Shown here in pieces: positions 9,833 through 31,944 of a stretch of DNA of 32,000 bases (position 1 is its first letter; every line of letters starts with the position of its first letter). The DNA is from Methylocaldum marinum (lineage in GTDB: Bacteria; Pseudomonadota; Gammaproteobacteria; Methylococcales; Methylococcaceae): contig NZ_AP017928.1 in the NCBI RefSeq assembly GCF_003584645.1, positions 4,446,833 through 4,478,832 on the forward strand. Direction: 5' to 3'. A model generated the notes under the pieces. It saw only the letters and a program-made list of their open reading frames with translations. It did no database searches and was not told the DNA's origin. The position numbers and the translations under genes were made by a program.

Positions 9833-10162
9833 GATTTATATTCATTCGAAATGCCGAATGGGATTACGTCCTTTCACTTGTATTACTCGATCTATAAATC
9901 GTCCCGGTCCATTTTGGATTATGCTGCAAATCGAAGCATTACTGCACTCCGCCTGGGCACACTATCGCGAAAGCGCTTGCCCGAATAACCCGAACCGGAC
10001 AATAAATATATTCAAATCAGCGAATTGGTGAAGCGGGTTTGGCGCCGTAAGCCTGGCACACCCTGTGCCTTTATATATACAGATATTATTACTTGGCATA
10101 ACAAGTGATCCATATCCAAGGCAAGTCTGTATTTTTGCAGCCTCGAGAAAAAGAGAATTACA

Positions 10163-11377
10163 ATGCGAACCAAAGTGGCGATACCTTTGCTGAGCGCTTT
10201 TCTGCCCGTACAAGCGGCCGTTTCTTCCGAAGACTCGGAATCCTTTATATCGAAAGGATTAGGCTTGATAAACGGCACGGTCAGAGCTTATTACGTTACC
10301 CGGCAGTTCGATTCAAAACCCGATCAGCATACCTTTTCACCCGGCGGCAGTCTGCGATTGGAAACGCCACCGCTGCACGGTGTACAGGTCGGCCTGGGTT
10401 ATTACTGGCAACATGATTTCGGTATCAGCAGCGATAAGCCCGAAAGACAGGTCGTGCCCATTTTTACCGGAAAGGATGTCGATATTCTCGGAGAGGCCTA
10501 TCTGAAATTTTCAGCCTTCGATACCGTTATCACTGCCGGGCGCCAAAAACTGACCACGCCGTTCGCGAACCCTGCGGATGCATTCCCGGTTCCCACTCTG
10601 TTCGAGGGGGTAAGCCTGATCCATAGTGTCGGCAATTTTTCGTTCGGCGGGTATTACCTCAGCAAAATCAAGGATAGGCCGAGCAATGAATTCGAGAATG
10701 TCGGGAAATTCTCGACCCGGCGATTGGGCGTGACGCCCGAGAAAACGGATGGCACCATCATCGGAAATATCGGCTATACGAACGGCGGGCTCGGGCTGGA
10801 AGGCTGGTTTTATCGGTTCTCGGACCTGTTCGACATGGGTTTGGTGCAAGCCAAATACATCACCCCGGAAATTCATGGCTTCAAGTTTTCGTTCGGTGCT
10901 CAAGGCGTGTTGCAGCAAGACCAGGGGCAAAGTTTGTTCGGGCCGATGGATAGTCTGGGCTACGGGTTTACGGTCGGTGCCGCCACGCGCCGGGTTGACC
11001 TCATATTTTCCTATAACGGCGTGGCCGATAGACCCGGCGCATTCAGAAATGGCGCGATATTGGCACCCTATAGCTATTCCAACACCACCTTGTTTACGAA
11101 CAATCTGGTCAGCTCTCCGGAAAACGCCGATTCGGGAAGCGTCTATAAAGTGGGCCTGAATTACCGGGTGGCGCCGAATTTTTCTTTTCTGCTCAGTCAC
11201 GCCGTCTTCAATTTCAATAACAAACCACATATCGCCGAAACCGATATCGATTGGAAATATGGCCTTGATCGGTTCATAAAAAACCTATCGCTTCGAAACA
11301 GGATCGGAATCATCACCTCCGAGGCCAAAAGTTCGGACATGGTGGATCTACGGGTTCAGCTCGAATATACGTTTTAG
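10163..11377 (+). CDS. Outer-membrane porin, OprD-family-like
   Basis: Signal peptide MRTKVAIPLLSAFLPVQAAVS. N-terminal GTVRAYYVTRQF resembles the OprD-family start. Alternating beta-strand pattern. Terminal ..LRVQLEYTF with C-terminal Phe. Sits in a visibly AT-richer segment. Confidence 0.75.
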   Translation: MRTKVAIPLLSAFLPVQAAVSSEDSESFISKGLGLINGTVRAYYVTRQFDSKPDQHTFSPGGSLRLETPPLHGVQVGLGYYWQHDFGISSDKPERQVVPIFTGKDVDILGEAYLKFSAFDTVITAGRQKLTTPFANPADAFPVPTLFEGVSLIHSVGNFSFGGYYLSKIKDRPSNEFENVGKFSTRRLGVTPEKTDGTIIGNIGYTNGGLGLEGWFYRFSDLFDMGLVQAKYITPEIHGFKFSFGAQGVLQQDQGQSLFGPMDSLGYGFTVGAATRRVDLIFSYNGVADRPGAFRNGAILAPYSYSNTTLFTNNLVSSPENADSGSVYKVGLNYRVAPNFSFLLSHAVFNFNNKPHIAETDIDWKYGLDRFIKNLSLRNRIGIITSEAKSSDMVDLRVQLEYTF

Positions 11378-11540
11378 CACACTGTGTCGCGAAACAAATC
11401 GAGAATACCTTGATTCAGACGATGTTTTAAAACCAAGAACAAACCCGCTCGATAACTTTTTCGTTACTTCGGCTAGTGATGCTGTAGCAAGCCCATCATA
11501 TATTCCCATAATTTCAAGATTTATTTGCAGAGAATGAAGT

Positions 11541-14500
11541 ATGAAACATACCTCCGATGACTCGGTCAGCCCAACTTTTGTCCCGAATCCCGCGAGCCTG
11601 TCCGACACGCTGGGTATTCCTCCCTACCGTTACCGCGACCTGCATGATCCCGAACGATTGAATGATCTGATGCGAAGCTTCGATACCCGGGTGTGTGAGC
11701 AGGATTCCGAGCTGTTCGGCGAGTTCCGGGAATATCGGGCCTGTGCCGGCGAGGGTATGGCGCCGGAGCGGATCTCGGAGCTTCTGGTAAGAATGGCGCC
11801 CTGGGTGGGTGATTTCCTTGCGCGGCTGTTCGATGTCGTCGCCATTCGGGAACGGCAAATCGAGGCCGTCCGCGGGGAGTTCGACAGCGTGTTCGTCTAC
11901 CGGGACCACATTCTGGGCAAACTGCCGGTCCGATTCAAAAGCGAAACGCCGGAGCAGTGGGATATCGGCTCGGTGTGCCGGCGTTTCGATACCATGCTCG
12001 CGGCCGCGGGCGATGCCGAACGGCTGGCGAAGGACGCCGAGGGCGCGGTGAGCGAGCTGGCCGCGCGGCTGTGGCGGCTTTCACAGCACTATGAAGCGGT
12101 CGCCGCGGGTAAAGCGGAGACCTGCGCCACGGCCGATACCGGTGTCGCCGCGCTGCGGGAGAAACTGGCCGCTTCGCCGCGGGCCGCGAGCCTGCTCGCC
12201 GATGTTCTCGGCGAGGCGAGCGCGGGGGAATTCGTCGGCGGCCTGCTGGAGGTGGTCTGCCGCTGGAGCTACGCCGCCGCTCGGGTGCCGGACCTAAAAC
12301 CGCAAGTGGCGGGTTGGGTCAGTTTCAAAACCCCCGCCAAAACCGATTTCAATCACCTGGTGGAACACGCCGACCGCGCCGAGAGCGGCTATACGGTGTG
12401 GACCGCGCCGCCGGGTCATCACCGCCGGCGCGACGGCTTCGCCCTGACCGATCCGGGCTTCGGCCGGCGGCGGGTCTTATACGAGGTCGATCATTGCATT
12501 CACTGCCACGACCGAGACGCCGATTCGTGCGCCAAGGGCATGCGCAACAAGAAGGACGGCAGCTACAAGACCAATCCCTTGGGCCAGGACATCACCGGTT
12601 GTCCGCTGGAAGAAAAGATTTCCGAAATGCAGTGGCTCAAGCGCCGGGGCGACAATATCGCCGCGCTGGCTCTCATCGTCATCGACAATCCGATGTGCCC
12701 CGGCACCGGCCATCGCATCTGCAACGATTGCATGAAGGCCTGCATTTATCAGAAAACCGAGCCGGTGGACATTCCGCAGGTGGAAACCAGCGTGCTCACC
12801 GACGTGCTGTTCATGCCCTGGGGTTTCGAGATCTACAGCCTTCTGACCCGCTGGAACCCGCTCAACGTCAGGCGTCCGTGCGCCTTGCCCTACAACGGCA
12901 AGAACGTGTTGGTCGCGGGCATGGGCCCGGCCGGCTACACCCTGTCCCATTATCTGTTGAACGAGGGCTTCGGGGTCGTGGGTATCGACGGGCTCAAGAT
13001 CGAGCCGCTGCCCCGGGAACTGACCGGCGACGGGCAAACGCCGCCGCGGCCGATCCGCGATTTTCGTGAACTCTACGAGGATCTGGACAAGCGCGTCATG
13101 CTGGGCTTCGGCGGCGTCGCCGAATACGGCATCACCGTGCGCTGGGATAAAAACTTTCTCAAGGTCATCTATTTGAACCTGCTGAGGCGCAAGGCTTTCC
13201 GTTGTTACGGCGGGGTACGCTTCGGCGGCACGCTGACGGTCGACGACGCCTGGGCGCTGGGCTTCGACCATATCGCCATCGCTTCCGGCGCCGGCAAGCC
13301 CACCGTGATCGACCTCAAGAACAATCTCGCGCGCGGTATTCGCAAGGCCTCGGATTTTCTCATGGCGCTCCAACTCACCGGCGCGGCCAAGGCATCCAGC
13401 CTGGCCAATCTGCAGGTGCGCCTGCCCGCCGGGGTCGTCGGCGGCGGGCTCACTGCCATCGATACCGCGACGGAGCTGCTGGCCTATTATCCGGTGCAGG
13501 TCAGCAAAATCCTTCATCGTTACGAAAAACTCGCGTCGGTCTACGGCGAGGAAACCGTGCGCGCCCGCTACGACCGGGAGGAACTCGCCATTCTCGACGA
13601 ATTCCTGGCTCATGGCCGGGTGATCCAGCAGGAGCGTGAACGCGCCGCGAGCGCCGGGGAGACGCCGGACTTCCTGCCCTTGCTGGAGCAGTGGGGCGGG
13701 GTGACGCTTTACTACCGCAAGGGCATCAAGGATTCCCCGGCCTACCGCCAGAACCACGAGGAGGTCGCCAAAGCCCTGGAAGAAGGGATACGCCTGGCCG
13801 AGGGTATGAACCCCGTCGAAGCGGTGGAGGATGGCTACGGCCATCTCGCCGGCGTGCGTTTCGAAAAGTTCGAGCAGCAGGACGGCAAATGGTGCAAGCA
13901 GGCGGAAATAGCGGTGCCCCTGCGCAGTCTCTTCGTTGCCGCCGGCACGTCCCCGAACACCATCTACGAATCGGAACATCCCGACACCTTCGAGATGGAT
14001 GGAAAGTTTTATCAACGCTTCGAGCCCAATTGGAGCCCTCACCCCGGCCCTCTCGAACCCTCACCCCAAACCCGTCTCCCAAAGGGAGACGGGTTCAATA
14101 GTTCCCTTCTCCCTCTGGGAGAAGGGGTAGGGATGAGGGAGGGAGAGGGAGTTCCTTTGTTGAAACCGATTGACGACACCGCCATTCCCAAAATCGGCAA
14201 ACCGGCGCCGTTTACCTCGTACCGGCGCCACGGCAGGTTCATCACCTTCTACGGCGACAACCACCCGGTTTATGCCGGCAATGTGGTCAGGGCCATGGCC
14301 AGCGCCAAGGATGGGTATCCGTATATCGTCAAGCTCTTCGAAAACCATCTGGCCGCCCTCGATCCCGCCGCACAGGGCGCGCGCGATGCGGCATTGGCGG
14401 CATTCCAGCGCAACCTGGACGACGCCTTGATCGGCCGCATCGTCGGCGTCGGCCGCCTGACGCCCACCATCATCGAAGTGGTGGTTCGCGCTCCCATGGC

Positions 14501-19836: not shown

Positions 19837-19966
19837 GATTTTTATTCTTGGAAAATAAAGGTTACCGAATTAAACAGAATCGGCGAGTGGATCGCAAGCG
19901 CGAAGGGCCTGTCCCGAGCCCGGTCGAAGGGCGGTTCCCGCCGGCCGCCGTCTCCTACAACCCGTA

Positions 19967-20211
19967 GTAGGGTGCGGTGAGGAACGAACCGCACCGATCG
20001 CGAACGATGCGGTTCCTTCGTCACCGCATCCTACGAGGTCTCGATTCGAACTGAAGACCACCGGCAGAGAATAGACGAAGGAACCCGTCTTATTCATCCG
20101 GCCCTTAAATACCCTATTGATTCCGTTCGGGCCGAGCTTGTCGAAGCCCCAAGCCGAGTGCCTTTCGACAAGCTCAGGGCGAACGTTATTTTGGGCCGGG
20201 TCAATAATGCT
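19967..20211. repeat. Array-terminal spacer: short REP, CRISPR-like remnant, 12-bp-stem hairpin
   Basis: REP gtagggtgcggtgagg...tcaccgcatcctac at 19967-20034. aggtctcgattcgaac at 20036-20051, then a 35-nt unique segment, then gtcttattcatcc at 20087. Hairpin gagcttgtcgaa/ttcgacaagctc at 20134-20175. Confidence 0.8.
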
Positions 20212-21009
20212 TTAGGGCTGGATCAGCAAGCCCCGGGGCAGGGTAGGGTGCTCCGCCGTGACCGCGAGCCCCCGGCGCAGGCCGAGATTGGCCAGGGCCA
20301 CGGCATAATCGCAGATGAATTCGAACGTCGTATTCTTGCCCTCGCCGCGGGCGTAACCCTGATAGATTTTCAGTTGCGCGGCCAGTCCCTCGTTGAAGCG
20401 CGCCGCGTCCCGCTCCAGGATGCCGGACAGAGCCGTGACGAGCGAGTGGTAGTTCCGGTCCGCCGCGCTTTTGGGCGGTTTGCGGGCGTAATCGTCGAAC
20501 TGCGCCTGCAGCCGCTGGCGGGCGTCTTCGAGGCGGTCCCGCACGGTGAAGGCCAGGGCATTGACATAGCGGTTGACATCGAGGCCGAGGCTGAAGCCGT
20601 CGGGGCGATCACGATACCCGCGTCCCAGTTCGACGGCGAGATCGAAATCGGCGGCCATCAGGGCGAAATTCAGGCCGTCGATGGCGATGGTTTCGCTTAC
20701 GGCGCTGAGGTCGGCTTTTTCCCCCTGATAATCGGGGTCCGTTTCGTCGTAAGCCATGCGGAAGCTTTTCAGGATGTGGCGGGCGGCATTGGCGAACTCG
20801 GCCCGGACCTCGGCGATCGGGTCGCCGTTCAGGAACTTGGCGCGGGCGAGGGAAGCATAAAGCATGGCCGTGCCCGTGTGAACACTCTCGATTGAAATGT
20901 TTTCCGCTTCGTAGAAACCGCTTTTGAAGTCTTCCTCCGTCTGCGTCAGTCCGTCTCTTGCCACCTTTAGCCAATGATCGATCTGCTGCTGTTCCGGTGT
21001 GTTGCTCAT
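20212..21009 (-). CDS. Putative immunity protein, unit 1 (265 aa; allele pattern a-1-1)
   Basis: Its ATG overlaps the stop of the upstream toxin-tip ORF (ATGA). One of 7 paralogs starting MSNTPEQQQIDHWL. The role is inferred from position downstream of the toxin-like domain. Confidence 0.75.
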   Translation of the reverse strand: MSNTPEQQQIDHWLKVARDGLTQTEEDFKSGFYEAENISIESVHTGTAMLYASLARAKFLNGDPIAEVRAEFANAARHILKSFRMAYDETDPDYQGEKADLSAVSETIAIDGLNFALMAADFDLAVELGRGYRDRPDGFSLGLDVNRYVNALAFTVRDRLEDARQRLQAQFDDYARKPPKSAADRNYHSLVTALSGILERDAARFNEGLAAQLKIYQGYARGEGKNTTFEFICDYAVALANLGLRRGLAVTAEHPTLPRGLLIQP

Positions 21010-21401
21010 TTGAACGCCTCTCCGATTACCTGTTTCAGTTCGTTGAAGTTTTCCAGCTCGAATTCGTCCAGGGTTTGGGCGATGTTGCCGTCCGCATCGC
21101 GTTCGAACACGCGCACCCGGCCGGTGTCGGTATTGGTGTGAACGGAGATGTGCTGTTTGTTGCCTTGTTTACGTATTACCTCTCCCCACAAATCGATCTC
21201 CTCCGCCGTGTACGGTCCGCCCTGGCGATTGGAGGGAAGGCCGACCTTCCGGGCCTTGTCTTCAGTCATCAACCGGGCTCTGCTGCGGTTCTTCGCTCGG
21301 GAGCCCTGCCGGTTCCCGTTGATATCCAGCGCCACCGACGTGCTGTCCCGGTTGTTGCCCTTGGCCTCCCACTCGGCCAGCCGGCCGTCCTTCTTCGTCA
21401 T
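21006..21401 (-). CDS. Orphan toxin C-terminal domain cassette, unit 1 (131 aa, variant A)
   Basis: Homologous to the last ~132 aa of the 428-aa gene at 29934-31220. Begins MTKKDGRLAEWEAKGNN. No obvious Shine-Dalgarno, so possibly a silent cassette. Confidence 0.7.
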   Translation of the reverse strand: MTKKDGRLAEWEAKGNNRDSTSVALDINGNRQGSRAKNRSRARLMTEDKARKVGLPSNRQGGPYTAEEIDLWGEVIRKQGNKQHISVHTNTDTGRVRVFERDADGNIAQTLDEFELENFNELKQVIGEAFK

Positions 21402-21697
21402 GTCGTCCGGGCCGTGGTAGCCCGTAGGGTGCGGTGAGGCGCGAACCGCACCGATGGCGCCGGCGAACGGTGCCTGTCCTGAGCGGTGAATGATGCGGTT
21501 CCTTCGTCACCGCATCCTGCGAGGTCTCGATTCGAACCGAAGATGACCGGCAGAGAATAGAAGAAGGAACCCGTCTGATTAATCCGGCCCTTAAATACGC
21601 TATTGATTCCGTTCGGGCCGAGCTTGCCGAAGCCCCAAGCCGAGTGCCTTTCGACAAGCTCAGGGCGAACGTTATTTTGGGCCGGGTCAATAATGCT
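21402..21697. repeat. Inter-cassette spacer: 20-nt coding-homology handle, 97-bp REP, CRISPR-like remnant, hairpin
   Basis: Handle gtcgtccgggccgtggtagc. REP at 21424-21520. aggtctcgattcgaac at 21522, then 35 nt, then gtctgattaatcc. Hairpin gagcttgccgaa/ttcgacaagctc. Confidence 0.8.
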
Positions 21698-22495
21698 TTA
21701 GGGCTGGATCAGCAAGCCCCGGGGCAGGGTAGGGTGCTCCGCCGTGACCTCGAGCCCCCGGCGCAGGCCGAGATTGGCCAGGGCCACGGCATAATCGCAG
21801 ATGAATTCGAACGTCGTATTCTTGCCCTCGCCGCGGGCGTAACCCTGATAGATTTTCAGTTGCGCGGCCAGTCCCTCGTTGAAGCGCGCCGCGTCCCGCT
21901 CCAGGATGCCGGACAGAGCCGTGACGAGCGAGTGGTAGTTCCGGTCCGCCGCGCTTTTGGGCGGTTTGCGGGCGTAATCGTCGAACTGCGCCTGCAGCCG
22001 CTGGCGGGCGTCTTCGAGGCGGTCCCGCACGGTGAAGGCCAGGGCATTGACATAGCGGTTGACATCGAGGCCGAGGCTGAAGCCGTCGGGGCGATCACGA
22101 TACCCGCGTCCCAGTTCGACGGCGAGATCGAAATCGGCGGCCATCAGGGCGAAATTCAGGCCGTCGATGGCGATGGTTTCGCTTACGGCGCTGAGGTCGG
22201 CTTTTTCCCCCTGATAATCGGGGTCCGTTTCGTCGTAAGCCATGCGGAAGCTTTTCAGGATGTGGCGGGCGGCATTGGCGAACTCGGCCCGGACCTCGGC
22301 GATCGGGTCGCCGTTCAGGAACTTGGCGCGGGCGAGGGAAGCATAAAGCATGGCCGTGCCCGTGTGAACACTCTCGATTGAAATGTTTTCCGCTTCGTAG
22401 AAACCGCTTTTGAAGTCTTCCTCCGTCTGCGTCAGTCCGTCTCTTGCCACCTTTAGCCAATGATCGATCTGCTGCTGTTCCGGTGTGTTGCTCAT
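21698..22495 (-). CDS. Putative immunity protein, unit 2 (265 aa; a-1-1, one residue different from unit 1)
   Basis: Identical to unit 1 except LEVTAEH versus LAVTAEH near the C-terminus. Confidence 0.75.
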   Translation of the reverse strand: MSNTPEQQQIDHWLKVARDGLTQTEEDFKSGFYEAENISIESVHTGTAMLYASLARAKFLNGDPIAEVRAEFANAARHILKSFRMAYDETDPDYQGEKADLSAVSETIAIDGLNFALMAADFDLAVELGRGYRDRPDGFSLGLDVNRYVNALAFTVRDRLEDARQRLQAQFDDYARKPPKSAADRNYHSLVTALSGILERDAARFNEGLAAQLKIYQGYARGEGKNTTFEFICDYAVALANLGLRRGLEVTAEHPTLPRGLLIQP

Positions 22496-22887
22496 TTGAA
22501 CGCCTCTCCGATTACCTGTTTCAGTTCGTTGAAGTTTTCCAGCTCGAATTCGTCCAGGGTTTGGGCGATGTTGCCGTCCGCATCGCGTTCGAACACGCGC
22601 ACCCGGCCGGTGTCGGTATTGGTGTGAACGGAGATGTGCTGTTTGTTGCCTTGTTTACGTATTACCTCTCCCCACAAATCGATCTCCTCCGCCGTGTACG
22701 GTCCGCCCTGGCGATTGGAGGGAAGGCCGACCTTCCGGGCCTTGTCTTCAGTCATCAACCGGGCTCTGCTGCGGTTCTTCGCTCGGGAGCCCTGCCGGTT
22801 CCCGTTGATATCCAGCGCCACCGACGTGCTGTCCCGGTTGTTGCCCTTGGCCTCCCACTCGGCCAGCCGGCCGTCCTTCTTCGTCAT
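22492..22887 (-). CDS. Orphan toxin C-terminal domain cassette, unit 2 (131 aa, variant A)
   Basis: Protein identical to the unit 1 cassette. ATGA overlap with the downstream gene. Confidence 0.7.
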   Translation of the reverse strand: MTKKDGRLAEWEAKGNNRDSTSVALDINGNRQGSRAKNRSRARLMTEDKARKVGLPSNRQGGPYTAEEIDLWGEVIRKQGNKQHISVHTNTDTGRVRVFERDADGNIAQTLDEFELENFNELKQVIGEAFK

Positions 22888-23183
22888 GTCGTCCGGGCCG
22901 TGGTAGCCCGTAGGGTGCGGTGAGGCGCGAACCGCACCGATGGCGCCGGCGAACGGTGCCTGTCCTGAGCGGTGAATGATGCGGTTCCTTCGTCACCGCA
23001 TCCTGCGAGGTCTCGATTCGAACCGAAGATGACCGGCAGAGAATAGAAGAAGGAACCCGTCTGATTAATCCGGCCCTTAAATACGCTATTGATTCCGTTC
23101 GGGCCGAGCTTGCCGAAGCCCCAAGCCGAGTGCCTTTCGACAAGCTCAGGGCGAACGTTATTTTGGGCCGGGTCAATAATGCT
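22888..23183. repeat. Inter-cassette spacer (handle, REP, CRISPR-like remnant, hairpin)
   Basis: REP at 22910-23006. aggtctcgattcgaac at 23008. Same b-type variant as 21402-21697. Confidence 0.8.
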
Positions 23184-23984
23184 TTAGGGCTGGATCAGCA
23201 AGCCCCGGGGCAGGGTAGGGTGCTCCGCCGTGACCTCGAGCCCCCGGCGCAGGCCGAGATTGGCCAAGGCGACGGCGTGATCGCAGATGAATTCCTCGTC
23301 GGTGTTCCGGGCCTCGCCGCGGGCGTAACTCTGATAGATTTTCAGTTGCGCGGCCAGTCCCTCGTTGAAGCGGGCTTCGTTCGTGTCCGCAATGCCGGAT
23401 AGAGCCGTGCTCAAGGTGAAGTAGTTCTTGCGATAATCGTTGCGCTTGGATGGCTTGGCCGCATACGCATCGATCTGAGCCGACAACAGCCCGCGGGCCT
23501 GCGGCAGGTCGTCGAGTACGACGGATTTGAGGGCATTGACATAGCGGTTGACATCGAGGCCGAGGCTGAAGCCGTCGGGGCGATCACGATACCCGCGTCC
23601 CAGTTCGACGGCGAGATCGAAATCGGCGGCCATCAGGGCGAAATTCAGGCCGTCGATGGCGATGGTTTCGCTTACGGCGCTGAGGTCGGCTTTTTCCCCC
23701 TGATAATCGGGGTCCGTTTCGTCGTAGGCCATGCGGAAGCTTTTCAGGATGTGGCGGGCGGCATTGGCGAACTCGGCCCGGACCTCGGCGATCGGGTCGC
23801 CGTTCAGGAACTTGGCGCGGGCGAGGGAAGCATAAAGCATGGCCGTGCCCGTGTGAACACTCTCGATTGAAATGTTTTCCGCTTCGTAGAAACCGCTTTT
23901 GAAGTCTTCCTCCGTCTGCGTCAGTCCGTCTCTTGCCACCTTTAGCCAATGATCGATCTGCTGCTGTTCCGGTGTGTTGCTCAT
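23184..23984 (-). CDS. Putative immunity protein, unit 3 (266 aa; a-1-2)
   Basis: N-terminal two thirds match units 1 and 2. The C-terminal third switches to ..KSVVLDDLPQARGLLSAQIDAYAAKPSKRNDYRKNYF... Confidence 0.75.
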   Translation of the reverse strand: MSNTPEQQQIDHWLKVARDGLTQTEEDFKSGFYEAENISIESVHTGTAMLYASLARAKFLNGDPIAEVRAEFANAARHILKSFRMAYDETDPDYQGEKADLSAVSETIAIDGLNFALMAADFDLAVELGRGYRDRPDGFSLGLDVNRYVNALKSVVLDDLPQARGLLSAQIDAYAAKPSKRNDYRKNYFTLSTALSGIADTNEARFNEGLAAQLKIYQSYARGEARNTDEEFICDHAVALANLGLRRGLEVTAEHPTLPRGLLIQP

Positions 23985-24376
23985 TTGAACGCCTCTCCGA
24001 TTACCTGTTTCAGTTCGTTGAAGTTTTCCAGCTCGAATTCGTCCAGGGTTTGGGTGATATTGCCTCTGTGGTCGCGTTCGAACACGCGCACCCGGCCGGT
24101 GTCGGTATTGGTGTGAACGGAGATGTGCTGTTTGTTGCCTTGTTTACGTATTACCTCTCCCCACAAATCGATCTCCTCCGCCGTGTACGGTCCGCCCTGG
24201 CGGTTGGAGGGAAGGCCGACCTTCCGGGCCTTGTCGCGGGTCATCAACTGGGCTCGGACGAGGTTCTTGTCACGCGAGCCCTGCCGGTTCCCGTTGATAT
24301 CCAGCGCCACCGACGTGCTGTCCCGGTTGTTGCCCTTGGCCTCCCACTCGGCCAGCCGGCCGTCCTTCTTCGTCAT
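23981..24376 (-). CDS. Orphan toxin C-terminal domain cassette, unit 3 (131 aa, variant B, a hybrid of A and C patches)
   Basis: Patch 1 DKNLVRAQLMTRDKARK (C-like), patch 2 VIRKQGN (A-like), patch 3 DHRGNITQ (C-like). Confidence 0.7.
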   Translation of the reverse strand: MTKKDGRLAEWEAKGNNRDSTSVALDINGNRQGSRDKNLVRAQLMTRDKARKVGLPSNRQGGPYTAEEIDLWGEVIRKQGNKQHISVHTNTDTGRVRVFERDHRGNITQTLDEFELENFNELKQVIGEAFK

Positions 24377-24672
24377 GTCGTCCGGGCCGTGGTAGCCCGT
24401 AGGGTGCGGTGAGGCGCGAACCGCACCGATGGCGCCGGCGAACGGTGCCTGTCCTGAGCGGTGAATGATGCGGTTCCTTCGTCACCGCATCCTACGAGGT
24501 CTCGATTCGAACTGAAGACCACCGGCAGAGAATAGACGAAGGAACCCGTCTTATTCATCCGGCCCTTAAATACCCTATTGATTCCGTTCGGGCCGAGCTT
24601 GTCGAAGCCCCAAGCCGAGTGCCTTTCGACAAGCTCAGGGCGAACGTTATTTTGGGCCGGGTCAATAATGCT
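24377..24672. repeat. Inter-cassette spacer (handle, REP, CRISPR-like remnant, hairpin)
   Basis: REP at 24399-24495. aggtctcgattcgaac at 24497, then 35 nt, then gtcttattcatcc. Confidence 0.8.
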
Positions 24673-25473
24673 TTAGGGCTGGATCAGCAAGCCTCGGGGC
24701 AGGGTAGGGTGCTCCGCCGTGACCGCGAGTCCCCGGCGCAGGCCGAGATTGGCCAAGGCGACGGCGTGATCGCAGATGAATTCCTCGTCGGTGTTCCGGG
24801 CCTCGCCGCGGGCGTAACTCTGATAGATTTTCAGTTGCGCGGCCAGTCCCTCGTTGAAGCGGGCTTCGTTCGTGTCCGCAATGCCGGATAGAGCCGTGCT
24901 CAAGGTGAAGTAGTTCTTGCGATAATCGTTGCGCTTGGATGGCTTGGCCGCATACGCATCGATCTGAGCCGACAACAGCCCGCGGGCCTGCGGCAGGTCG
25001 TCGAGTACGACGGATTTGAGGGCATTGACATAGCGGTTGACATCGAGGCCGAGGCTGAAGCCGTCGGGCGAATCCCGATACCCGCGTCCCAGTTCGACGG
25101 CGAGATCGAAATCGGCGGCCATGAACGCGTGATTGAAGCCTCGTATGGCGATGGTTTCGCTTACGGCGCTGAGGTCGGCTTTTTCCCCCTGATAATCGGG
25201 GTCCGTTTCGTCGTAGGCCATGCGGAAGCTTTTCAGGATGTGGCGGGCGGCATTGGCGAACTCGGCCCGGACCTCGGCGATCGGGTCGCCGTTCAGGAAC
25301 TTGGCGCGGGCGAGGGAAGCGTGATCTCCCGCAACCGCCGTGTGAACGCATTGCAAGGACACACCATGTTTTTCATGAAACCCTTCCCTGTTCAACCGCC
25401 AGGTCCGTTCAATTTGGTAGCGGGCATTGTTCAGCCAATGATCGATCTGCTGCTGTTCCGGTGTGTTGCTCAT
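24673..25473 (-). CDS. Putative immunity protein, unit 4 (266 aa; b-1'-2)
   Basis: New N-terminal segment NNARYQIERTWRLNREGFHEKHGVSLQCVHTAVAGDHASLA. Middle segment is a hybrid (..IAIRGFNHAFMAADFDLAVELG..). C-terminal third matches unit 3. Confidence 0.75.
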   Translation of the reverse strand: MSNTPEQQQIDHWLNNARYQIERTWRLNREGFHEKHGVSLQCVHTAVAGDHASLARAKFLNGDPIAEVRAEFANAARHILKSFRMAYDETDPDYQGEKADLSAVSETIAIRGFNHAFMAADFDLAVELGRGYRDSPDGFSLGLDVNRYVNALKSVVLDDLPQARGLLSAQIDAYAAKPSKRNDYRKNYFTLSTALSGIADTNEARFNEGLAAQLKIYQSYARGEARNTDEEFICDHAVALANLGLRRGLAVTAEHPTLPRGLLIQP

Positions 25474-25865
25474 TTGAACGCCTCTCCGATTACCTGTTTC
25501 AGTTCGTTGAAGTTTTCCAGCTCGAATTCGTCCAGGGTTTGGGTGATATTGCCTCTGTGGTCGCGTTCGAACACGCGCACCCGGCCGGTGTCGGTATTGG
25601 TGTGAACGGAGATGTGCTGTTTGTCGCCGCCCAATTCGTCAATCTCGCCCCACAGATCGATCTCCTCCGCCGTGTACGGTCCGCCCTGGCGGTCGGAAGG
25701 GAGGCCGGCCTTCCGGGCCTTGTCGCGGGTCATCAACTGGGCTCGGACGAGGTTCTTGTCACGCGAGCCCTGCCGGTTCCTGTTGATATCCAGCGCCACC
25801 GACGTGCTGTCCTGGTTGTTGCCCTTGGCCTCCCACTCGGCCAGCCGGCCGTCCTTCTTCGTCAT
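25470..25865 (-). CDS. Orphan toxin C-terminal domain cassette, unit 4 (131 aa, variant C)
   Basis: Variant C: NNQDSTS, INRNRQGSRDKNLVRAQLMTRDKARKAGLPSD, IDELGGD, DHRGNITQ. Confidence 0.7.
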   Translation of the reverse strand: MTKKDGRLAEWEAKGNNQDSTSVALDINRNRQGSRDKNLVRAQLMTRDKARKAGLPSDRQGGPYTAEEIDLWGEIDELGGDKQHISVHTNTDTGRVRVFERDHRGNITQTLDEFELENFNELKQVIGEAFK

Positions 25866-26161
25866 GTCGTCCGGGCCGTGGTAGCCCGTAGGGTGCGGTG
25901 AGGCGCGAACCGCACCGATGGCGCCGGCGAACGGTGCCTGTCCTGAGCGGTGAATGATGCGGTTCCTTCGTCACCGCATCCTACGAGGTCTCGATTCGAA
26001 CTGAAGACGACCGGCAGAGAATAGACGAAGGAACCCGTCTTATTCATCCGGCCCTTAAATACCCTATTGATTCCGTTCGGGCCGAGCTTGTCGAAGCCCC
26101 AAGCCGAGTGCCTTTCGACAAGCTCAGGGCGAACGTTATTTTGGGCCGGGTCAATAATGCT
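25866..26161. repeat. Inter-cassette spacer (handle, REP, CRISPR-like remnant, hairpin)
   Basis: REP at 25888-25984. aggtctcgattcgaac at 25986. Confidence 0.8.
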
Positions 26162-26959
26162 TTAGGGCTGGATCAGCAAGCCTCGGGGCAGGGTAGGGTG
26201 CTCCGCCGTGACCGCGAGCCCCCGGCGCAGGCCGAGATTGGCCAGGGCCACGGCATAATCGCAGATGAATTCGAACGTCGTATTCTTGCCCTCGCCGCGG
26301 GCGTAACCCTGATAGATTTTCAGTTGCGCGGCCAGTCCCTCGTTGAAGCGCGCCGCGTCCCGCTCCAGGATGCCGGACAGAGCCGTGACGAGCGAGTGGT
26401 AGTTCCGGTCCGCCGCGCTTTTGGGCGGTTTGCGGGCGTAATCGTCGAACTGCGCCTGCAGCCGCTGGCGGGCGTCTTCGAGGCGGTCCCGCACGGTGAA
26501 GGCCAGGGCATTGACATAGCGGTTGACATCGAGGCCGAGGCTGAAGCCGTCGGGGCGATCACGATACCCGCGTCCCAGTTCGACGGCGAGATCGAAATCG
26601 GCGGCCATCAGGGCGAAATTCAGGCCGTCGATGGCGATGGTTTCGCTTACGGCGCTGAGGTCGGCTTTTTCCCCCTGATAATCGGGGTCCGTTTCGTCGT
26701 AAGCCATGCGGAAGCTTTTCAGGATGTGGCGGGCGGCATTGGCGAACTCGGCCCGGACCTCGGCGATCGGGTCGCCGTTCAGGAACTTGGCGCGGGCGAG
26801 GGAAGCGTGCATTCCAGCCAGGGTGCAATACATTCCTTGAATCGGCAGGTTTTCCCGAGCGTAGAAGCCCGAGCGATAGAGTTCCCACTTTTCCGTAATG
26901 CCTTCCTGCGATACCGCGAGCCAATGATCGATCTGCTGCTGTTCCGGTGTGTTGCTCAT
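26162..26959 (-). CDS. Putative immunity protein, unit 5 (265 aa; c-1-1)
   Basis: Unique N-terminal segment AVSQEGITEKWELYRSGFYARENLPIQGMYCTLAGMHASLA. The remainder matches unit 1. Confidence 0.75.
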   Translation of the reverse strand: MSNTPEQQQIDHWLAVSQEGITEKWELYRSGFYARENLPIQGMYCTLAGMHASLARAKFLNGDPIAEVRAEFANAARHILKSFRMAYDETDPDYQGEKADLSAVSETIAIDGLNFALMAADFDLAVELGRGYRDRPDGFSLGLDVNRYVNALAFTVRDRLEDARQRLQAQFDDYARKPPKSAADRNYHSLVTALSGILERDAARFNEGLAAQLKIYQGYARGEGKNTTFEFICDYAVALANLGLRRGLAVTAEHPTLPRGLLIQP

Positions 26960-27351
26960 TTGAACGCCTCTCCGATTACCTGTTTCAGTTCGTTGAAGTT
27001 TTCCAGCTCGAATTCGTCCAGGGTTTGGGTGATATTGCCTCTGTGGTCGCGTTCGAACACGCGCACCCGGCCGGTGTCGGTATTGGTGTGAACGGAGATG
27101 TGCTGTTTGTCGCCGCCCAATTCGTCAATCTCGCCCCACAGATCGATCTCCTCCGCCGTGTACGGTCCGCCCTGGCGGTCGGAAGGGAGGCCGGCCTTCC
27201 GGGCCTTGTCGCGGGTCATCAACTGGGCTCGGACGAGGTTCTTGTCACGCGAGCCCTGCCGGTTCCTGTTGATATCCAGCGCCACCGACGTGCTGTCCTG
27301 GTTGTTGCCCTTGGCCTCCCACTCGGCCAGCCGGCCGTCCTTCTTCGTCAT
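26956..27351 (-). CDS. Orphan toxin C-terminal domain cassette, unit 5 (131 aa, variant C)
   Basis: Protein identical to the unit 4 and unit 6 cassettes. Confidence 0.7.
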   Translation of the reverse strand: MTKKDGRLAEWEAKGNNQDSTSVALDINRNRQGSRDKNLVRAQLMTRDKARKAGLPSDRQGGPYTAEEIDLWGEIDELGGDKQHISVHTNTDTGRVRVFERDHRGNITQTLDEFELENFNELKQVIGEAFK

Positions 27352-27647
27352 GTCGTCCGGGCCGTGGTAGCCCGTAGGGTGCGGTGAGGCGCGAACCGCA
27401 CCGATGGCGCCGGCGAACGGTGCCTGTCCTGAGCGGTGAATGATGCGGTTCCTTCGTCACCGCATCCTACGAGGTCTCGATTCGAACTGAAGACGACCGG
27501 CAGAGAATAGACGAAGGAACCCGTCTTATTCATCCGGCCCTTAAATACCCTATTGATTCCGTTCGGGCCGAGCTTGTCGAAGCCCCAAGCCGAGTGCCTT
27601 TCGACAAGCTCAGGGCGAACGTTATTTTGGGCCGGGTCAATAATGCT
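27352..27647. repeat. Inter-cassette spacer (handle, REP, CRISPR-like remnant, hairpin)
   Basis: REP at 27374-27470. aggtctcgattcgaac at 27472. Confidence 0.8.
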
Positions 27648-28448
27648 TTAGGGCTGGATCAGCAAGCCCCGGGGCAGGGTAGGGTGTTCCGCCGTGACTT
27701 CGAGCCCCCGGCGCAGGCCGAGATTGGCCAGGGCGACGGCATAATCGCAGATGAATTCCTCGTCGGTGTCCTTCAATTCGCCTTGCGCATCGCCCTGATA
27801 AAAGTTCAACTGCATCATCAAACCTTCGTTGAAGCGGGCTTCGTTCGTGTCCGCAATGCCGGATAGAGCCGTGCTCAAGGTGAAGTAGTTCTTGCGATAA
27901 TCGTTGCGCTTGGATGGCTTGGCCGCATAGGCATCGAACTGAGCGGCCAACAACTCTTGGGCACTCCGCAGGTCGTCGAGCAAGACGCCTTTCAGCGCAT
28001 GGGCATATCGGTTGACTTCGACAACTTTTTTTACTCCGTCCGGGCGGTCCCGAAACCAACCGGCCAGTTCGGCGGCCAGGCTGAAGTCGGCGGCCATGAG
28101 TGCGTGATTGAAGCCTCGAATGGCGATGGTTTCGGCGACGCAACTCAAATCGGCGGCACTGCCTTGATAATTGGGGTCCGTTTCGTCGTAGGCCATGCGG
28201 AAGCTTTTCAGGATGTGGCGGGCGGCATTGGCGAACTCGGCCCGGACCTCGGCGATCGGGTCGCCGTTCAGGAACTTGGCGCGGGCGAGGGAAGCGTGAT
28301 CTCCCGCAACCGCCGTGTGAACGCATTGCAAGGACACACCATGTTTTTCATGAAACCCTTCCCTGTTCAACCGCCAGGTCCGTTCAATTTGGTAGCGGGC
28401 ATTGTTCAGCCAATGATCGATCTGCTGCTGTTCCGGTGTGTTGCTCAT
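27648..28448 (-). CDS. Putative immunity protein, unit 6 (266 aa; b-3-3)
   Basis: N-terminal segment matches unit 4. Middle and C-terminal segments are a third type (..GSAADLSCVAETIAIRGFNHALMAADFSLAAELAGWFRDRPDGVKKVVEV.. and ..LMMQLNFYQGDAQGELKDTDEEF..). Confidence 0.75.
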   Translation of the reverse strand: MSNTPEQQQIDHWLNNARYQIERTWRLNREGFHEKHGVSLQCVHTAVAGDHASLARAKFLNGDPIAEVRAEFANAARHILKSFRMAYDETDPNYQGSAADLSCVAETIAIRGFNHALMAADFSLAAELAGWFRDRPDGVKKVVEVNRYAHALKGVLLDDLRSAQELLAAQFDAYAAKPSKRNDYRKNYFTLSTALSGIADTNEARFNEGLMMQLNFYQGDAQGELKDTDEEFICDYAVALANLGLRRGLEVTAEHPTLPRGLLIQP

Positions 28449-28840
28449 TTGAACGCCTCTCCGATTACCTGTTTCAGTTCGTTGAAGTTTTCCAGCTCGA
28501 ATTCGTCCAGGGTTTGGGTGATATTGCCTCTGTGGTCGCGTTCGAACACGCGCACCCGGCCGGTGTCGGTATTGGTGTGAACGGAGATGTGCTGTTTGTC
28601 GCCGCCCAATTCGTCAATCTCGCCCCACAGATCGATCTCCTCCGCCGTGTACGGTCCGCCCTGGCGGTCGGAAGGGAGGCCGGCCTTCCGGGCCTTGTCG
28701 CGGGTCATCAACTGGGCTCGGACGAGGTTCTTGTCACGCGAGCCCTGCCGGTTCCTGTTGATATCCAGCGCCACCGACGTGCTGTCCTGGTTGTTGCCCT
28801 TGGCCTCCCACTCGGCCAGCCGGCCGTCCTTCTTCGTCAT
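28445..28840 (-). CDS. Orphan toxin C-terminal domain cassette, unit 6 (131 aa, variant C)
   Basis: Protein identical to the unit 4 and unit 5 cassettes. Confidence 0.7.
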   Translation of the reverse strand: MTKKDGRLAEWEAKGNNQDSTSVALDINRNRQGSRDKNLVRAQLMTRDKARKAGLPSDRQGGPYTAEEIDLWGEIDELGGDKQHISVHTNTDTGRVRVFERDHRGNITQTLDEFELENFNELKQVIGEAFK

Positions 28841-29136
28841 GTCGTCCGGGCCGTGGTAGCCCGTAGGGTGCGGTGAGGCGCGAACCGCACCGATGGCGCC
28901 GGCGAACGGTGCCTGTCCTGAGCGGTGAATGATGCGGTTCCTTCGTCACCGCATCCTACGAGGTCTCGATTCGAACTGAAGACGACCGGCAGAGAATAGA
29001 CGAAGGAACCCGTCTTATTCATCCGGCCCTTAAATACCCTATTGATTCCGTTCGGGCCGAGCTTGTCGAAGCCCCAAGCCGAGTGCCTTTCGACAAGCTC
29101 AGGGCGAACGTTATTTTGGACCGGGTCAATAATGCT
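28841..29136. repeat. Inter-cassette spacer (handle, REP, CRISPR-like remnant, hairpin)
   Basis: REP at 28863-28959. aggtctcgattcgaac at 28961. Confidence 0.8.
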
Positions 29137-29937
29137 TTAGGGCTGGATCAGCAAGCCCCGGGGCAGGGTAGGGTGTTCCGCCGTGACTTCGAGCCCCCGG
29201 CGCAGGCCGAGATTGGCCAGGGCGACGGCATAATCGCAGATGAATTCCTCGTCGGTGTCCTTCAATTCGCCTTGCGCATCGCCCTGATAAAAGTTCAACT
29301 GCATCATCAAACCTTCGTTGAAGCGGGCTTCGTTCGTGTCCGCAATGCCGGATAGAGCCGTGCTCAAGGTGAAGTAGTTCTTGCGATAATCGTTGCGCTT
29401 GGATGGCTTGGCCGCATAGGCATCGAACTGAGCGGCCAACAACTCTTGGGCACTCCGCAGGTCGTCGAGCAAGACGCCTTTCAGCGCATGGGCATATCGG
29501 TTGACTTCGACAACTTTTTTTACTCCGTCCGGGCGGTCCCGAAACCAACCGGCCAGTTCGGCGGCCAGGCTGAAGTCGGCGGCCATGAGTGCGTGATTGA
29601 AGCCTCGAATGGCGATGGTTTCGGCGACGCAACTCAAATCGGCGGCACTGCCTTGATAATCGGGGTCCGTTTCGTCGTAGGCCATGCGGAAGCTTTTCAG
29701 GATGTGGCGGGCGGCATTGGCGAACTCGGCCCGGACCTCGGCGATCGGGTCGCCGTTCAGGAACTTGGCGCGGGCGAGGGCGGCATGCCAGCCTGCCAGT
29801 CCAGTAAAATGAATTTGAAGTGAAATGTTCTTTTTTTCATAGAACCCTTCTGCGTAAAGTTGGTGCTTACGGGCAATCCGTGTTGTTGCCGTATTAAGCC
29901 AATGATCGATCTGCTGCTGTTCCGGTGTGTTGCTCAT
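29137..29937 (-). CDS. Putative cognate immunity protein of the full-length toxin, unit 7 (266 aa; d-3-3)
   Basis: Directly downstream of the 428-aa gene with an ATGA overlap. Unique AT-richer N-terminal segment NTATTRIARKHQLYAEGFYEKKNISLQIHFTGLAGWHAALA. The rest matches unit 6. Confidence 0.78.
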   Translation of the reverse strand: MSNTPEQQQIDHWLNTATTRIARKHQLYAEGFYEKKNISLQIHFTGLAGWHAALARAKFLNGDPIAEVRAEFANAARHILKSFRMAYDETDPDYQGSAADLSCVAETIAIRGFNHALMAADFSLAAELAGWFRDRPDGVKKVVEVNRYAHALKGVLLDDLRSAQELLAAQFDAYAAKPSKRNDYRKNYFTLSTALSGIADTNEARFNEGLMMQLNFYQGDAQGELKDTDEEFICDYAVALANLGLRRGLEVTAEHPTLPRGLLIQP

Positions 29938-31220
29938 TTGAACGCCTCTCCGATTACCTGTTTCAGTTCGTTGAAGTTTTCCAGCTCGAATTCGTCCAGG
30001 GTTTGGGCGATGTTGCCGTCCGCATCGCGTTCGAACACGCGCACCCGGCCGGTGTTGGTGTTGGTGTGGACGGAGATGTGCTGTTTGTCGCCGCCCAATT
30101 CGTCAATCTCGCCCCACAAATCGATCTCCTCCGCCGTGTACGGTCCGCCCTGGCGATTGGAGGGGAGTCCCACTTTGCCTTGTTGTTCCTTTCCTAGCAG
30201 GGTCCGAGCGCGTAATTGATTCTTATCTCTAGACCCTTGCAAATTGCCGTGCTTATCCATTGCCACCGACGTGCTGTCCTGGTTGTTGCCCTTGGCCTCC
30301 CACTCGGCCAGCCGGCCGTCCTTCTTCGTCATGTCGTCCGGGCCGTGGTAGCGGTCCACGTAGCGCGGGTCGGAGCGGTGTCCCAGCCGGCGCTTGGCTT
30401 GCTCCAGCCCGGCCTTGCCCAGCGCCTCGGGCGCCGAGCGGGTGTTGTGGGTCAGGATCTGCTTGAGATCGGCCGCGAATTCGTCCGGGTGGCGCACCAC
30501 CGAGCGGAACCGGGTGGCCAGGGCCATGGCGGCGGACAGCATCGCGCCCGCGCCGGCCGAGTCGCGGACCACGCGCGCCCCGTCGGCCTCGCCGTCGCCG
30601 ACCGGGGGCAGCAGGTCCCGCCCGTCCGTCTCGTAGCGCTGCCGGACCGCGCCGGGACCAAGGGTTTCGCCGGTGGCCCGGTCCCTGAACGCCACGATGT
30701 TCCGCTCCGCCAGCCATTCGGCATTCATCGCCGCGTTGGCCTTGGCGAAGCGATTGCCCAGTTCCTTCGCCCCGCCCACCGCCTTGTCCCACCACGACCC
30801 CGGGGCCGAGCCCCGGCGCGTGGGCGTTTCGTTCAAGCGGCGGAGGATGTCTTCCAGGCGCCGGCGGAGGATCGGAAGCTCCGTCATAGAAAGGTTGCTC
30901 ACCCAGCGGCCTCGATCCGCGGATTCGCCGTCCGCTTGCCAGCGGACCACCGGCGCAAAGGGCCGCTTACCGGATTCATGGACCAGGAAAACTTCCCCGT
31001 AGTCGATCTCGTCCAGCAACAGGTCGAGAGTTGCCGGATCCCAGTGCGGCGGGGGATCGAGATCGTCGAACAGGTCGGCCAGCACGTCGTCGAGGTCCCA
31101 GATGCGGTCCGGCTCGTCGTCATCGAGGAACGCCCATTCGATGTCCGAACGGGCAAAGAAGGGATGCTCGATGTTCGGCAGGTCCGACCATTCGAGGTCC
31201 TCGGGGCGTTTCAGTCTCAT
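29934..31220 (-). CDS. Full-length polymorphic-toxin-like protein (428 aa): unique acidic N-terminal ~296 aa plus variable ~132-aa C-terminal domain (variant D)
   Basis: GAGAGGGA RBS lies 8-10 nt upstream of ATG 31220. The C-terminal part from ..YHGPDDMTKKDGRLAEWEAKGNN is homologous to the six 131-aa cassettes. No signal peptide or recognisable trafficking domain by eye. Confidence 0.85.
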   Translation of the reverse strand: MRLKRPEDLEWSDLPNIEHPFFARSDIEWAFLDDDEPDRIWDLDDVLADLFDDLDPPPHWDPATLDLLLDEIDYGEVFLVHESGKRPFAPVVRWQADGESADRGRWVSNLSMTELPILRRRLEDILRRLNETPTRRGSAPGSWWDKAVGGAKELGNRFAKANAAMNAEWLAERNIVAFRDRATGETLGPGAVRQRYETDGRDLLPPVGDGEADGARVVRDSAGAGAMLSAAMALATRFRSVVRHPDEFAADLKQILTHNTRSAPEALGKAGLEQAKRRLGHRSDPRYVDRYHGPDDMTKKDGRLAEWEAKGNNQDSTSVAMDKHGNLQGSRDKNQLRARTLLGKEQQGKVGLPSNRQGGPYTAEEIDLWGEIDELGGDKQHISVHTNTNTGRVRVFERDADGNIAQTLDEFELENFNELKQVIGEAFK

Positions 31221-31330: not shown

Positions 31331-31521
31331 GTTGGGTGAGGCGCGACGACCCGGCGCGTGATTCGGTGTGCTCGGCAGCGGCGAATGATGCGGGCGGCTT
31401 TGCTCACCACAGCCTACGGCCCGTAGGGTGCGGTGAGGCACGAACCGCACCGATGGCGTTCTCGAACGATGTCTGTCCCGCGCCCGTAGAAGGGCGGTTT
31501 CCTTCGTTCGTCGCAATCTAC
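31331..31521. repeat. Two adjacent REP elements of the gtagggtgcggtgagg family
   Basis: gggtgaggcgcga...ttgctcaccacagcctac at about 31331-31416. gtagggtgcggtgaggcacgaaccgcaccg...cgtcgcaatctac at 31423-31521. Confidence 0.75.
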
Positions 31522-31564: not shown

Positions 31565-31944
31565 GATTGGGTCCCTTCTTTATCAGGTCTCGATTCAAAC
31601 ATCAATGAAGTTGCCCCAGACGAAAAGATGTCGAAGTCTTAATCCCTTCTTTATCAGGTGTCGATTCAAACAGATGAATCCCGCAGAACTTGCGGCTTAT
31701 CTGAAGTCTTAATCCCTTCTTTATCAGGTCTCGATTCAAACGTTCAAGGGCGCGAAGACGACCGTGGCATGCCTCCGCGTCTTAATCCCTTCTTTATCAG
31801 GTCTCGATTCAAACCAAGGAGCAGCTGGCGACAACGCAGGGGAAGCGGCGTCTTAATCCCTTCTTTATCAGGTCTCGATTCAAACACCACAGTTGGCGGG
31901 ATGTCGATGCCGCGCTTCGCGTCTTAACAGGCTGTTGAAATTCG
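31565..31944. CRISPR. CRISPR array: 36-bp repeat GTCTTAATCCCTTCTTTATCAGGTCTCGATTCAAAC with five spacers of 34-37 bp; both terminal repeats degenerate
   Basis: Repeats at 31565 (5 mismatches), 31636 (1 mismatch), 31706, 31779 and 31850, plus a truncated repeat at 31921 (gtcttaa then cagg..). Unique spacers at 31601-31635, 31672-31705, 31742-31778, 31815-31849 and 31886-31920. No cas genes in the window and orientation is unresolved. Confidence 0.9.

Follow-up and report, generated by a model that had tools for sequence, protein, structure and literature searches.

A polymorphic toxin locus of Methylocaldum marinum S8 with a block-mosaic array of orphan toxin tips and Imm49-family immunity genes

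In the systems of contact-dependent growth inhibition (CDI, with its cdiA-CT/cdiI modules), in Rhs and among the MafB orphans, a conserved N-terminus is followed by a replaceable toxin C-terminus with the immunity gene directly downstream (PMC3482391), and 5'-truncated toxin cassettes with their immunity genes trail behind, joined via a conserved junction. A different arrangement is the homogeneous polyimmunity locus, in which tandem immunity genes are never interrupted by toxin genes or cassettes (Zhang et al. 2012, PMC3482391). The orphan immunity arrays of Vibrio cholerae's type VI secretion system (T6SS), finally, arise by sequential displacement and homologous recombination (Kirchberger et al. 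2017, PMC5361080). Here we describe a locus of Methylocaldum marinum S8 that resembles the first and the last of these in part. It occupies the minus strand of positions 20212-31220 in a 32-kb stretch of the genome, referred to below as the window, and consists of one 428-aa toxin open reading frame (ORF), seven ORFs of 265 or 266 aa belonging to the Imm49 family, and six toxin tips of 131 aa. Taken as a whole, the locus is probably made of a polymorphic toxin, its immunity gene and six chimeric orphan cassettes that have been reshuffled by homologous recombination.

The seven units, numbered U1 to U7 with U7 next to the complete toxin, follow one another with a tandem period of 1486 or 1489 bp. 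A 296-bp spacer, nearly identical in every copy, lies between them, and in all seven the stop codon of the toxin or tip overlaps with the downstream immunity gene in the form of ATGA. An assembly artefact was considered as the source of the array and judged unlikely, because the public S8 genome was closed with PacBio reads at 102x coverage and because the units are distinct from each other. Three characteristics of a polymorphic toxin system in the sense of Zhang, Aravind and colleagues are present: an N-terminal module that occurs with alternative C-termini, an immunity gene directly downstream, and 5'-truncated cassettes that share a junction. The locus is a polymorphic toxin locus, that is, a known kind of system with an unusually clean block mosaic. 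It is not a polyimmunity locus sensu Zhang et al., since a toxin tip precedes each immunity gene in the array and the toxin cassettes thus interrupt the immunity genes.

The complete toxin carries the tip variant designated D and can be divided into three parts: an N-terminal module (residues 1 to about 115, positions 30876-31220), a helical linker (about 131-250) and a toxin domain (about 255-428). Its homologues are 40-95% identical. The N-terminal module was found by an exhaustive search with the first 250 residues of the toxin; a word-index search returned only P0001, a protein from another sample. In a sample of 42 proteins matching the module, at least 10 different toxin domains stand behind it. 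It heads proteins that end in Colicin-DNase, WHH, two deaminase families and a Tle1-like lipase, and the further C-termini include TNT, Ntox44, Ntox46, Aspzincin and PT-TG. With one N-terminal module and many alternative C-terminal toxins, the protein has the architecture by which polymorphic toxins are defined. No Pfam model exists for the module, which may be a delivery marker not yet described, in the manner of MIX, FIX or RIX. The linker region (residues 131-250) matches giant repeat proteins within Listeria-Bacteroides repeats and was treated as uninformative.

The C-terminal part of about 175 residues is found in the proteins of other bacteria behind PAAR, Tox-PAAR-like or Hcp domains. 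Such PAAR or Hcp fusions are limited to homologues of the C-terminal domain; the toxin of the window itself lacks the marks of a T6SS cargo or specialised effector, having no PAAR, VgrG or Hcp fusion and no T6SS genes nearby. In an alignment of 31 sequences of the toxin domain, E306, E308 and K310 are invariant and E265 and H292-G-P-D295 near-invariant, and these conserved columns make up an E...PD...ExK pattern. The AlphaFold2 model of the toxin has a predicted local distance difference test score (pLDDT) of 79 overall, and of 74-96 per ten-residue block from residue 261 onward, mostly 83-96. Imm49 has been described as the partner of Tox-REase-1 and Tox-REase-6, which are toxins of the restriction endonuclease fold (Zhang et al. 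2012, PMC3482391). The domain is most likely a PD-(D/E)xK nuclease, a prediction made because of the motif and the partner family and not because of a fold match.

The proteins of 265 or 266 aa are assigned to the Imm49 family from their sequences. The Pfam model Imm49 (PF15575) scores U1 at 35.5 bits, above the gathering threshold of 30.1 bits, and U7 at 17.6 bits, below it; many homologues of these proteins carry a precomputed PF15575 match. The AlphaFold2 model of the immunity protein (pLDDT 96.5) is all-alpha with 12 helices and has weak matches to tetratricopeptide repeat (TPR)-like structures. Furthermore, in most of the approximately 85 related loci that were scanned, the next gene downstream of the toxin domain is an Imm49 gene. 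Within the array, U1 and U2 differ by one residue and are therefore very recent duplicates.

The orphan tips deserve a closer look, as they determine how the pairs in the array can be read. Their ORFs begin at the equivalent of Met297 of the toxin, just after the conserved GPDD motif. Since the toxin domain starts at about residue 255, the orphan tips are incomplete: they do not have the first helix of the domain, and E265 and the PD aspartate D295 are missing. From 22 nt upstream of the ATG of the tip to 51 nt after it, the orphans are identical in DNA to the main gene, over a stretch of 73 nt that we call the handle, and the toxin block P0 has a single DNA allele across all seven copies. The handle can serve as the 5' junction for recombining a tip into the expressed gene. 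That a replacement of the tip at the main gene has occurred follows from P0001, which is near-identical to the toxin of the window outside the tip patches: one residue differs in the first 320, and 20 differ within patches 1 and 3 or in the sequence immediately flanking them. Tip C, together with its handle and upstream spacer, is almost identical in DNA in three units, and the immunity genes that follow diverge from their variable segment 1 onward. That tip C is found with three partners is explained by gene conversion or unequal crossing-over with an endpoint in the conserved beginning of the immunity gene. As the orphan tips are fragments, their adjacency to an immunity gene in the cassette sets no functional constraint on pairing. 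The first-pass annotation of this locus had argued from the three partners of variant C against a one-to-one co-evolution. This argument is not supported, both because the tips are truncated and because, in a set of 40 pairs taken from elsewhere than the window and described further below, the patches of the toxin covary with the segments of the immunity protein.

The mosaic itself was correctly recognized in that annotation. The immunity proteins have three invariant blocks, and a protein alignment bears out the alleles proposed for the variable segments between them: {U1-3}, {U4, U6}, {U5} and {U7} for segment 1 (a grouping of 123|46|5|7), {U1, 2, 3, 5}, a hybrid in U4 and {U6, 7} for segment 2, and {U1, 2, 5}, {U3, 4} and {U6, 7} for segment 3. 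The toxin tips vary in the three patches named there, at roughly residues 18-57 of the tip, at VIRKQGN versus IDELGGD, and at DADGNIAQ versus DHRGNITQ; the variants B and D are indeed hybrids, and the three copies of variant C are identical in DNA and not in protein alone. In DNA, the mosaic is finer than this description. Between U4 and U6 there are differences at 0/117 nt of segment 1, at 55/180 of segment 2 and at 45/255 of segment 3. U5 departs from U1 at 60/117 nt of segment 1 and is identical to it throughout segments 2 and 3. U6 looks chimeric, with a left part that matches U4 and a right part that begins at the conserved block behind segment 1 and matches U7. The units group as 12|3456|7 in toxin patch 1, as 123|4567 in patch 2, as 127|3456 in patch 3 and as 14567|23 in the spacer, segments 2 and 3 each divide into three sub-blocks with differing groupings, and the grouping switches at least 10 times along a unit. 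The pairwise homoplasy (PHI) test gave p<=0.001 with 300 informative sites. The same blocks, at 100% block identity, recur in new combinations in sS8_5545 and sS8_5547, which belong to a second S8 locus compared as proteins, as well as in two proteins from metagenomes; the metagenome contigs gave no match to an exact 50-nt probe of a conserved block. With the DNA block differences, the PHI test and the same blocks recombined elsewhere, segmental recombination or gene conversion, as had been suggested, is the best explanation of the mosaic.

Blocks without differences among the seven copies alternate with blocks that differ at one third to over half of their positions. The conserved blocks have 0-6 nt differences, mostly 0-1 (1/117 in the conserved immunity block C1). 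The variable blocks have synonymous divergences (dS) from 0.4 to saturated (above 2), with a ratio of nonsynonymous to synonymous divergence (dN/dS) below 1 in all of them. High or saturated dS, dN/dS below 1 and conserved blocks that are near-identical in DNA are the signature of old alleles combined by recombination, and not of recent hypermutation or of positive selection on new mutations. The age of the alleles can be seen in other taxa as well. The segment-1 alleles are 31-46% identical to each other within the array, while their relatives in other taxa are 62-87% identical to them, in proteins that are only 51-71% identical over the remaining length. Hypermutation or a diversity-generating retroelement was also considered and rejected, given the saturated synonymous sites, the lack of a reverse transcriptase in the window, and the relatives that the variable blocks have in other taxa. 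The GC content at third codon positions is 0.86-1.0 in the conserved blocks, except for the N-terminal block of the immunity genes (0.64-0.71) and the last 23 codons of the toxin (0.65). In the variable blocks it ranges from 0.29 to 1.0 and is mostly at or below the background, the neighbouring genes in the window having 0.77-0.82. This contrast fits a foreign origin of the variable blocks, a GC-biased conversion of the conserved blocks, or both.

Whether the variable blocks carry information on specificity was approached through 40 toxin-immunity pairs from other genomes and metagenomes, with the window excluded. In these comparisons P1, P2 and P3 stand for toxin patches 1, 2 and 3, and V1, V2 and V3 for immunity segments 1, 2 and 3. 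A b-like segment 1 is accompanied by an [ILM]GG patch 2 in 4/4 pairs versus 1/36 of the rest (Fisher p=5e-5), and an a-like segment 1 by a basic patch 2 in 8/9 versus 9/31 (p=0.002). Net charge in patch 2 correlates negatively with that in segment 1 (rho = -0.66). Partial Mantel tests, controlled for the rest of the tip and for the conserved immunity blocks, were strongest for P2~V1 (0.25, p=0.0005), P1~V3 (0.25, p=0.0005) and P3~V3 (0.22, p=0.001), and weaker for P2~V2 (0.14, p=0.018), P1~V1 (0.11, p=0.042) and P1~V2 (0.12, p=0.05); P2~V3, P3~V1 and P3~V2 were not significant among the 40 pairs. There is also one other sample with two cassettes in which the conserved block C1 is identical at 39/39 residues and the tips are near-identical, and these two differ jointly in patch 2 (2/7 identical) and segment 1 (11/39 identical). 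In the window and elsewhere, patch 3 reassorts independently of patch 2 and of segment 1, between which it lies, so linkage alone is a weak explanation of the covariation. The covariation is what co-evolving interface modules would give, and from these sequence comparisons we infer such a coupling.

By the rules obtained across taxa, the cassettes of the array can be divided into those with a coherent pair and those without. Tip A with U1 and U2, tip B with U3, and toxin D with U7 are predicted to be coherent pairs. U4, with a type b segment 1 and a type 2 segment 3, is the predicted best fit to tip C. U5 (type c in segment 1, type 1 in segment 3) is predicted not to match the tip C next to it; a c-like segment 1 accompanies R..[KD]G patches elsewhere. 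U6 (b-3-3) is predicted to fit toxin D better than tip C.

In the explanation that we consider probable, a single expressed gene would give the 428-aa toxin with its delivery-type N-terminal module, its helical linker and a predicted nuclease domain of about 175 aa, and an Imm49-family, TPR-like immunity protein would neutralise this toxin by direct binding. Behind them would stand the six orphan cassettes, each with a hairpin-rich spacer, the 73-nt handle, a tip from which the first third of the domain is missing, and an immunity gene that is complete. These cassettes would be chimeras of about four old parental haplotypes, whose divergent blocks are reshuffled by unequal crossing-over and gene conversion inside the DNA-identical blocks. 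The same recombination would have spread tip C and its spacer over three units and duplicated unit 1/2. The divergent blocks may well be specificity modules, with segment 1 of the immunity protein reading patch 2 of the toxin (VIRKQGN/IDELGGD), and segment 3, in part also segment 2, reading patches 1 and 3. Protection by the orphan immunity genes would then be directed against the tips of relatives, or against tips that the strain itself could assemble, while recombination at the handle would move an orphan tip into the expressed gene. It is plausible to read the array as a poly-immunity repertoire, as the first-pass annotation had proposed. The orphan genes themselves are possibly reached by read-through from the toxin promoter, with translational coupling via the tip ORFs.

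A number of observations weigh against this explanation. When the toxin model was compared by Foldseek with PDB and BFVD, no match was significant (best E 0.16-0.2), with several PD-(D/E)xK nucleases among the non-significant ones. The 428-aa toxin matched no Pfam toxin model, the models searched being without REase-1 and REase-6, and nothing was found for the toxin domain in PDB sequence searches and profiles, PHROGs, NCBIfam or PADLOC. No secretion genes are present in the 32-kb window, and no sigma-70-like site is seen on the coding strand of the spacers. Only about 200 nt separate patch 2 from segment 1, so that linkage contributes to their covariation, and the covariation statistics are corrected for shared ancestry only through the partial Mantel controls. 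A trailing orphan tip was found in only a few of the approximately 85 related loci and an array of at least three units in none, nearly all of them being short-read contigs, many of which break at or near the cassette; arrays in these loci could have been collapsed by the assembly. Finally, the toxin-Imm49 pairs in two related loci (L001, 10001-12009, and L003, 10001-12189) lie among type I restriction-modification, Abi, SymE and PIN/PhD genes. These surroundings are defence-island-like.

Some of these points can be read in favour of other explanations. Under neutral concerted evolution, the variable segments would be weakly constrained and the rest homogenised by conversion, without any information on specificity. 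The DNA identity of the conserved blocks would agree with this, as would variable blocks too divergent for conversion and truncated orphan tips that are under no pairing constraint. We nevertheless consider it quite unlikely, given that dN/dS is below 1 in every variable block, that the segment-1 classes are closer to sequences in other taxa than to each other, and that patches and segments covary specifically in independent loci. The surroundings of the related pairs, the missing secretion genes and the presence of a CRISPR array 350 bp upstream would rather suit an intracellular toxin-antitoxin or anti-phage module, in which the array represents antitoxin paralogues and no interbacterial weapon is involved. 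This is highly improbable in view of the PAAR and Hcp fusions of the toxin domain in other species, the sharing of the N-terminal module with classical exported toxin domains including the T6SS Tle1-like lipase, the orphan tip cassettes that are typical of polymorphic toxins, and the lack of a PADLOC match.

It is also conceivable that the specificity is switched in a programmed manner, with silent orphan donors that feed blocks into the expressed pair as pilS does into pilE, promoted by the hairpin spacers. There is one complete gene next to truncated copies without a promoter-like site, with an exact 73-nt handle common to all; the variable blocks act like minicassettes between identical blocks; P0001, in another strain, has a different tip mosaic on an otherwise identical gene; and the structured spacer element is confined, within the window, to the array locus. 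A programmed switch is very doubtful all the same, as the window contains no recombinase, reverse transcriptase or initiator element and ordinary RecA-dependent recombination accounts for the same pattern. A broader proposal is that the array acts as a combinatorial specificity-switching device, in which block modules (P2 with segment 1, P1 and P3 with segment 3) are converted from silent cassettes into the expressed pair. We regard it as unlikely. If it were true, the strain would change its weapon while the retained immunity paralogues guard it against its own former and future toxins. The coordinates of the toxin, the reshuffled orphan cassettes and the associated elements are collected in Table 1.

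Table 1. Features of the toxin locus and its array in the window
Feature	Position in window	Strand	Basis or remark
Full-length toxin, tip variant D, 428 aa	29934..31220	-	ORF
Met297 codon of toxin D	30330-30332	-	end coordinate of the range given in the first-pass annotation
C-terminal toxin domain, residues ~255-428, predicted PD-(D/E)xK-type nuclease	29937..30458	-	conserved motif columns
73-nt homology handle, YHGPDD-MTKKDGRLAEWEAKGNN	30282..30354	-	DNA identity of main gene and six orphans
U7 immunity gene, alleles d-3-3, assigned to the expressed toxin	29137..29937	-	ORF, 266 aa, Imm49 family
Orphan tip C copy 1, 131 aa, 5'-truncated	28445..28840	-	ORF
U6 immunity gene, b-3-3	27648..28448	-	identical to sS8_4126
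Orphan tip C copy 2	26956..27351	-	ORF
U5 immunity gene, c-1-1	26162..26959	-	ORF
Orphan tip C copy 3	25470..25865	-	ORF
U4 immunity gene, b-1'-2	24673..25473	-	identical to sS8_4122
Orphan tip B, C-like in patches 1 and 3 and A-like in patch 2	23981..24376	-	ORF and alignment
U3 immunity gene, a-1-2	23184..23984	-	ORF
Orphan tip A copy 1	22492..22887	-	ORF
U2 immunity gene, a-1-1	21698..22495	-	identical to sS8_4118
Orphan tip A copy 2	21006..21401	-	ORF
U1 immunity gene, a-1-1	20212..21009	-	one residue different from U2
296-bp spacers (six)	28841..29136, 27352-27647, 25866-26161, 24377-24672, 22888-23183, 21402-21697	-	
Array end, spacer-like stretch after U1 with shortened second hairpin element	19837..20211	-	
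Second hairpin element, further copy, ~200 nt upstream of the toxin start	31423..31451	-	

The spacers have a structure of their own. The 296-bp spacers contain two long hairpins, and the representative one at 28841..29136 folds with -127.5 kcal/mol (z = -4.5). One hairpin element, GGTGCGGTTCGNGCCTCACCGCACCCTAC, is part of a composite of about 110 nt and is present in 8 copies on the minus strand, within the window only at the array locus. The copies are found at 19967-19995, in the six spacers and at 31423-31451; they bracket the whole array and lie directly against the handle in every orphan cassette. Once per spacer there is a palindromic element, GAGCTTGTCGAAAGGC...CTTCGACAAGCTC, in 7 copies between positions 20160 and 29100. 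It opens spurious plus-strand ORFs of up to 327 aa, with the start MPFDKLRANV, which lie antisense to the immunity genes and might be taken for genes in an annotation. A CRISPR (clustered regularly interspaced short palindromic repeats)-like array (31570-31925) is located about 350 bp upstream of the toxin start, with five repeats of 36 or 37 nt, GTCTTAATCCCTTCTTTATCAGGTCTCGATTCAAAC, and spacers of about 34-36 nt; it has no Rfam match and no cas gene inside the window, and Rfam found no family anywhere in the window. The remainder of the window consists of ordinary metabolism genes. Two other regions in it are worth recording. An 86-bp tandem repeat at 3481-3783 (3.6 copies, 94% identity, with palindromic CCTACGG-type units) has genes for an ABC transporter and a GntR regulator on either side, and the region 10000-12000 has a low GC content (0.51-0.52), with an OprD-like porin gene at 10163-11377 whose third-position GC content of 0.61 is unlike that of its neighbours.

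Among the related loci there are a few with observations of interest in themselves. Two contigs of the JGI sample 3300049891, L040 and L042, start with an identical 52 nt upstream of a 130-aa tip of the orphan type, behind which an Imm49 gene lies. They hint at a similar array in another organism that short-read assembly has collapsed. In L042 the tip has an in-frame stop. Decaying copies of the same family, with frameshifted toxin and immunity genes, are present in the metagenome contigs L054, L063, L066 and L075-L080, of which L075-L080 are near-identical contigs from different samples.

The wider question behind such loci is how a toxin-immunity pair can change its specificity without a self-killing intermediate. 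The polymorphic toxin locus of S8, with its recombined cassettes, offers a natural set of chimeras in this respect: seven immunity variants here and four elsewhere, together with five toxin tips, all composed of few block alleles with exact junctions. What it adds to the known systems is the clean block structure, a testable patch-to-segment code derived from independent loci, and an unannotated N-terminal module of the toxin.

In comparison with CDI, Rhs and MafB loci, the toxin here is short (428 aa) and its N-terminal module is unannotated; it lacks a VENN or PxxxxDPxGL junction, and nearby there are no genes for CdiB, Rhs or a T6SS. The cassettes also differ in kind, in that all of them belong to one toxin and immunity family and vary by block shuffling, not by the exchange of unrelated domains. 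The pairs of Imm49 with Tox-REase-1 and Tox-REase-6 have in common with this locus an all-alpha Imm49 protein beside a toxin with a restriction-endonuclease-type motif; the toxin domain here, however, has no Pfam Tox-REase match, the REase-1 and REase-6 models not having been among those searched. A likeness of another sort exists with Neisseria pilE/pilS, where there is one expressed gene with truncated silent copies, and minicassettes between conserved stretches are moved as blocks. Here the product is a toxin-immunity pair and not a surface antigen, and there is no evidence of a dedicated initiation element or of switching at high frequency. Among described processes, the closest is that of the V. 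cholerae arrays, which likewise retain immunity genes downstream of the active pair and are mosaic through homologous recombination. Those arrays contain different immunity families that were horizontally acquired at T6SS clusters, whereas the array of M. marinum is made of seven paralogues in an exact 1.49-kb tandem repeat, with block mosaicism inside the genes and an intact tip ORF in every unit.

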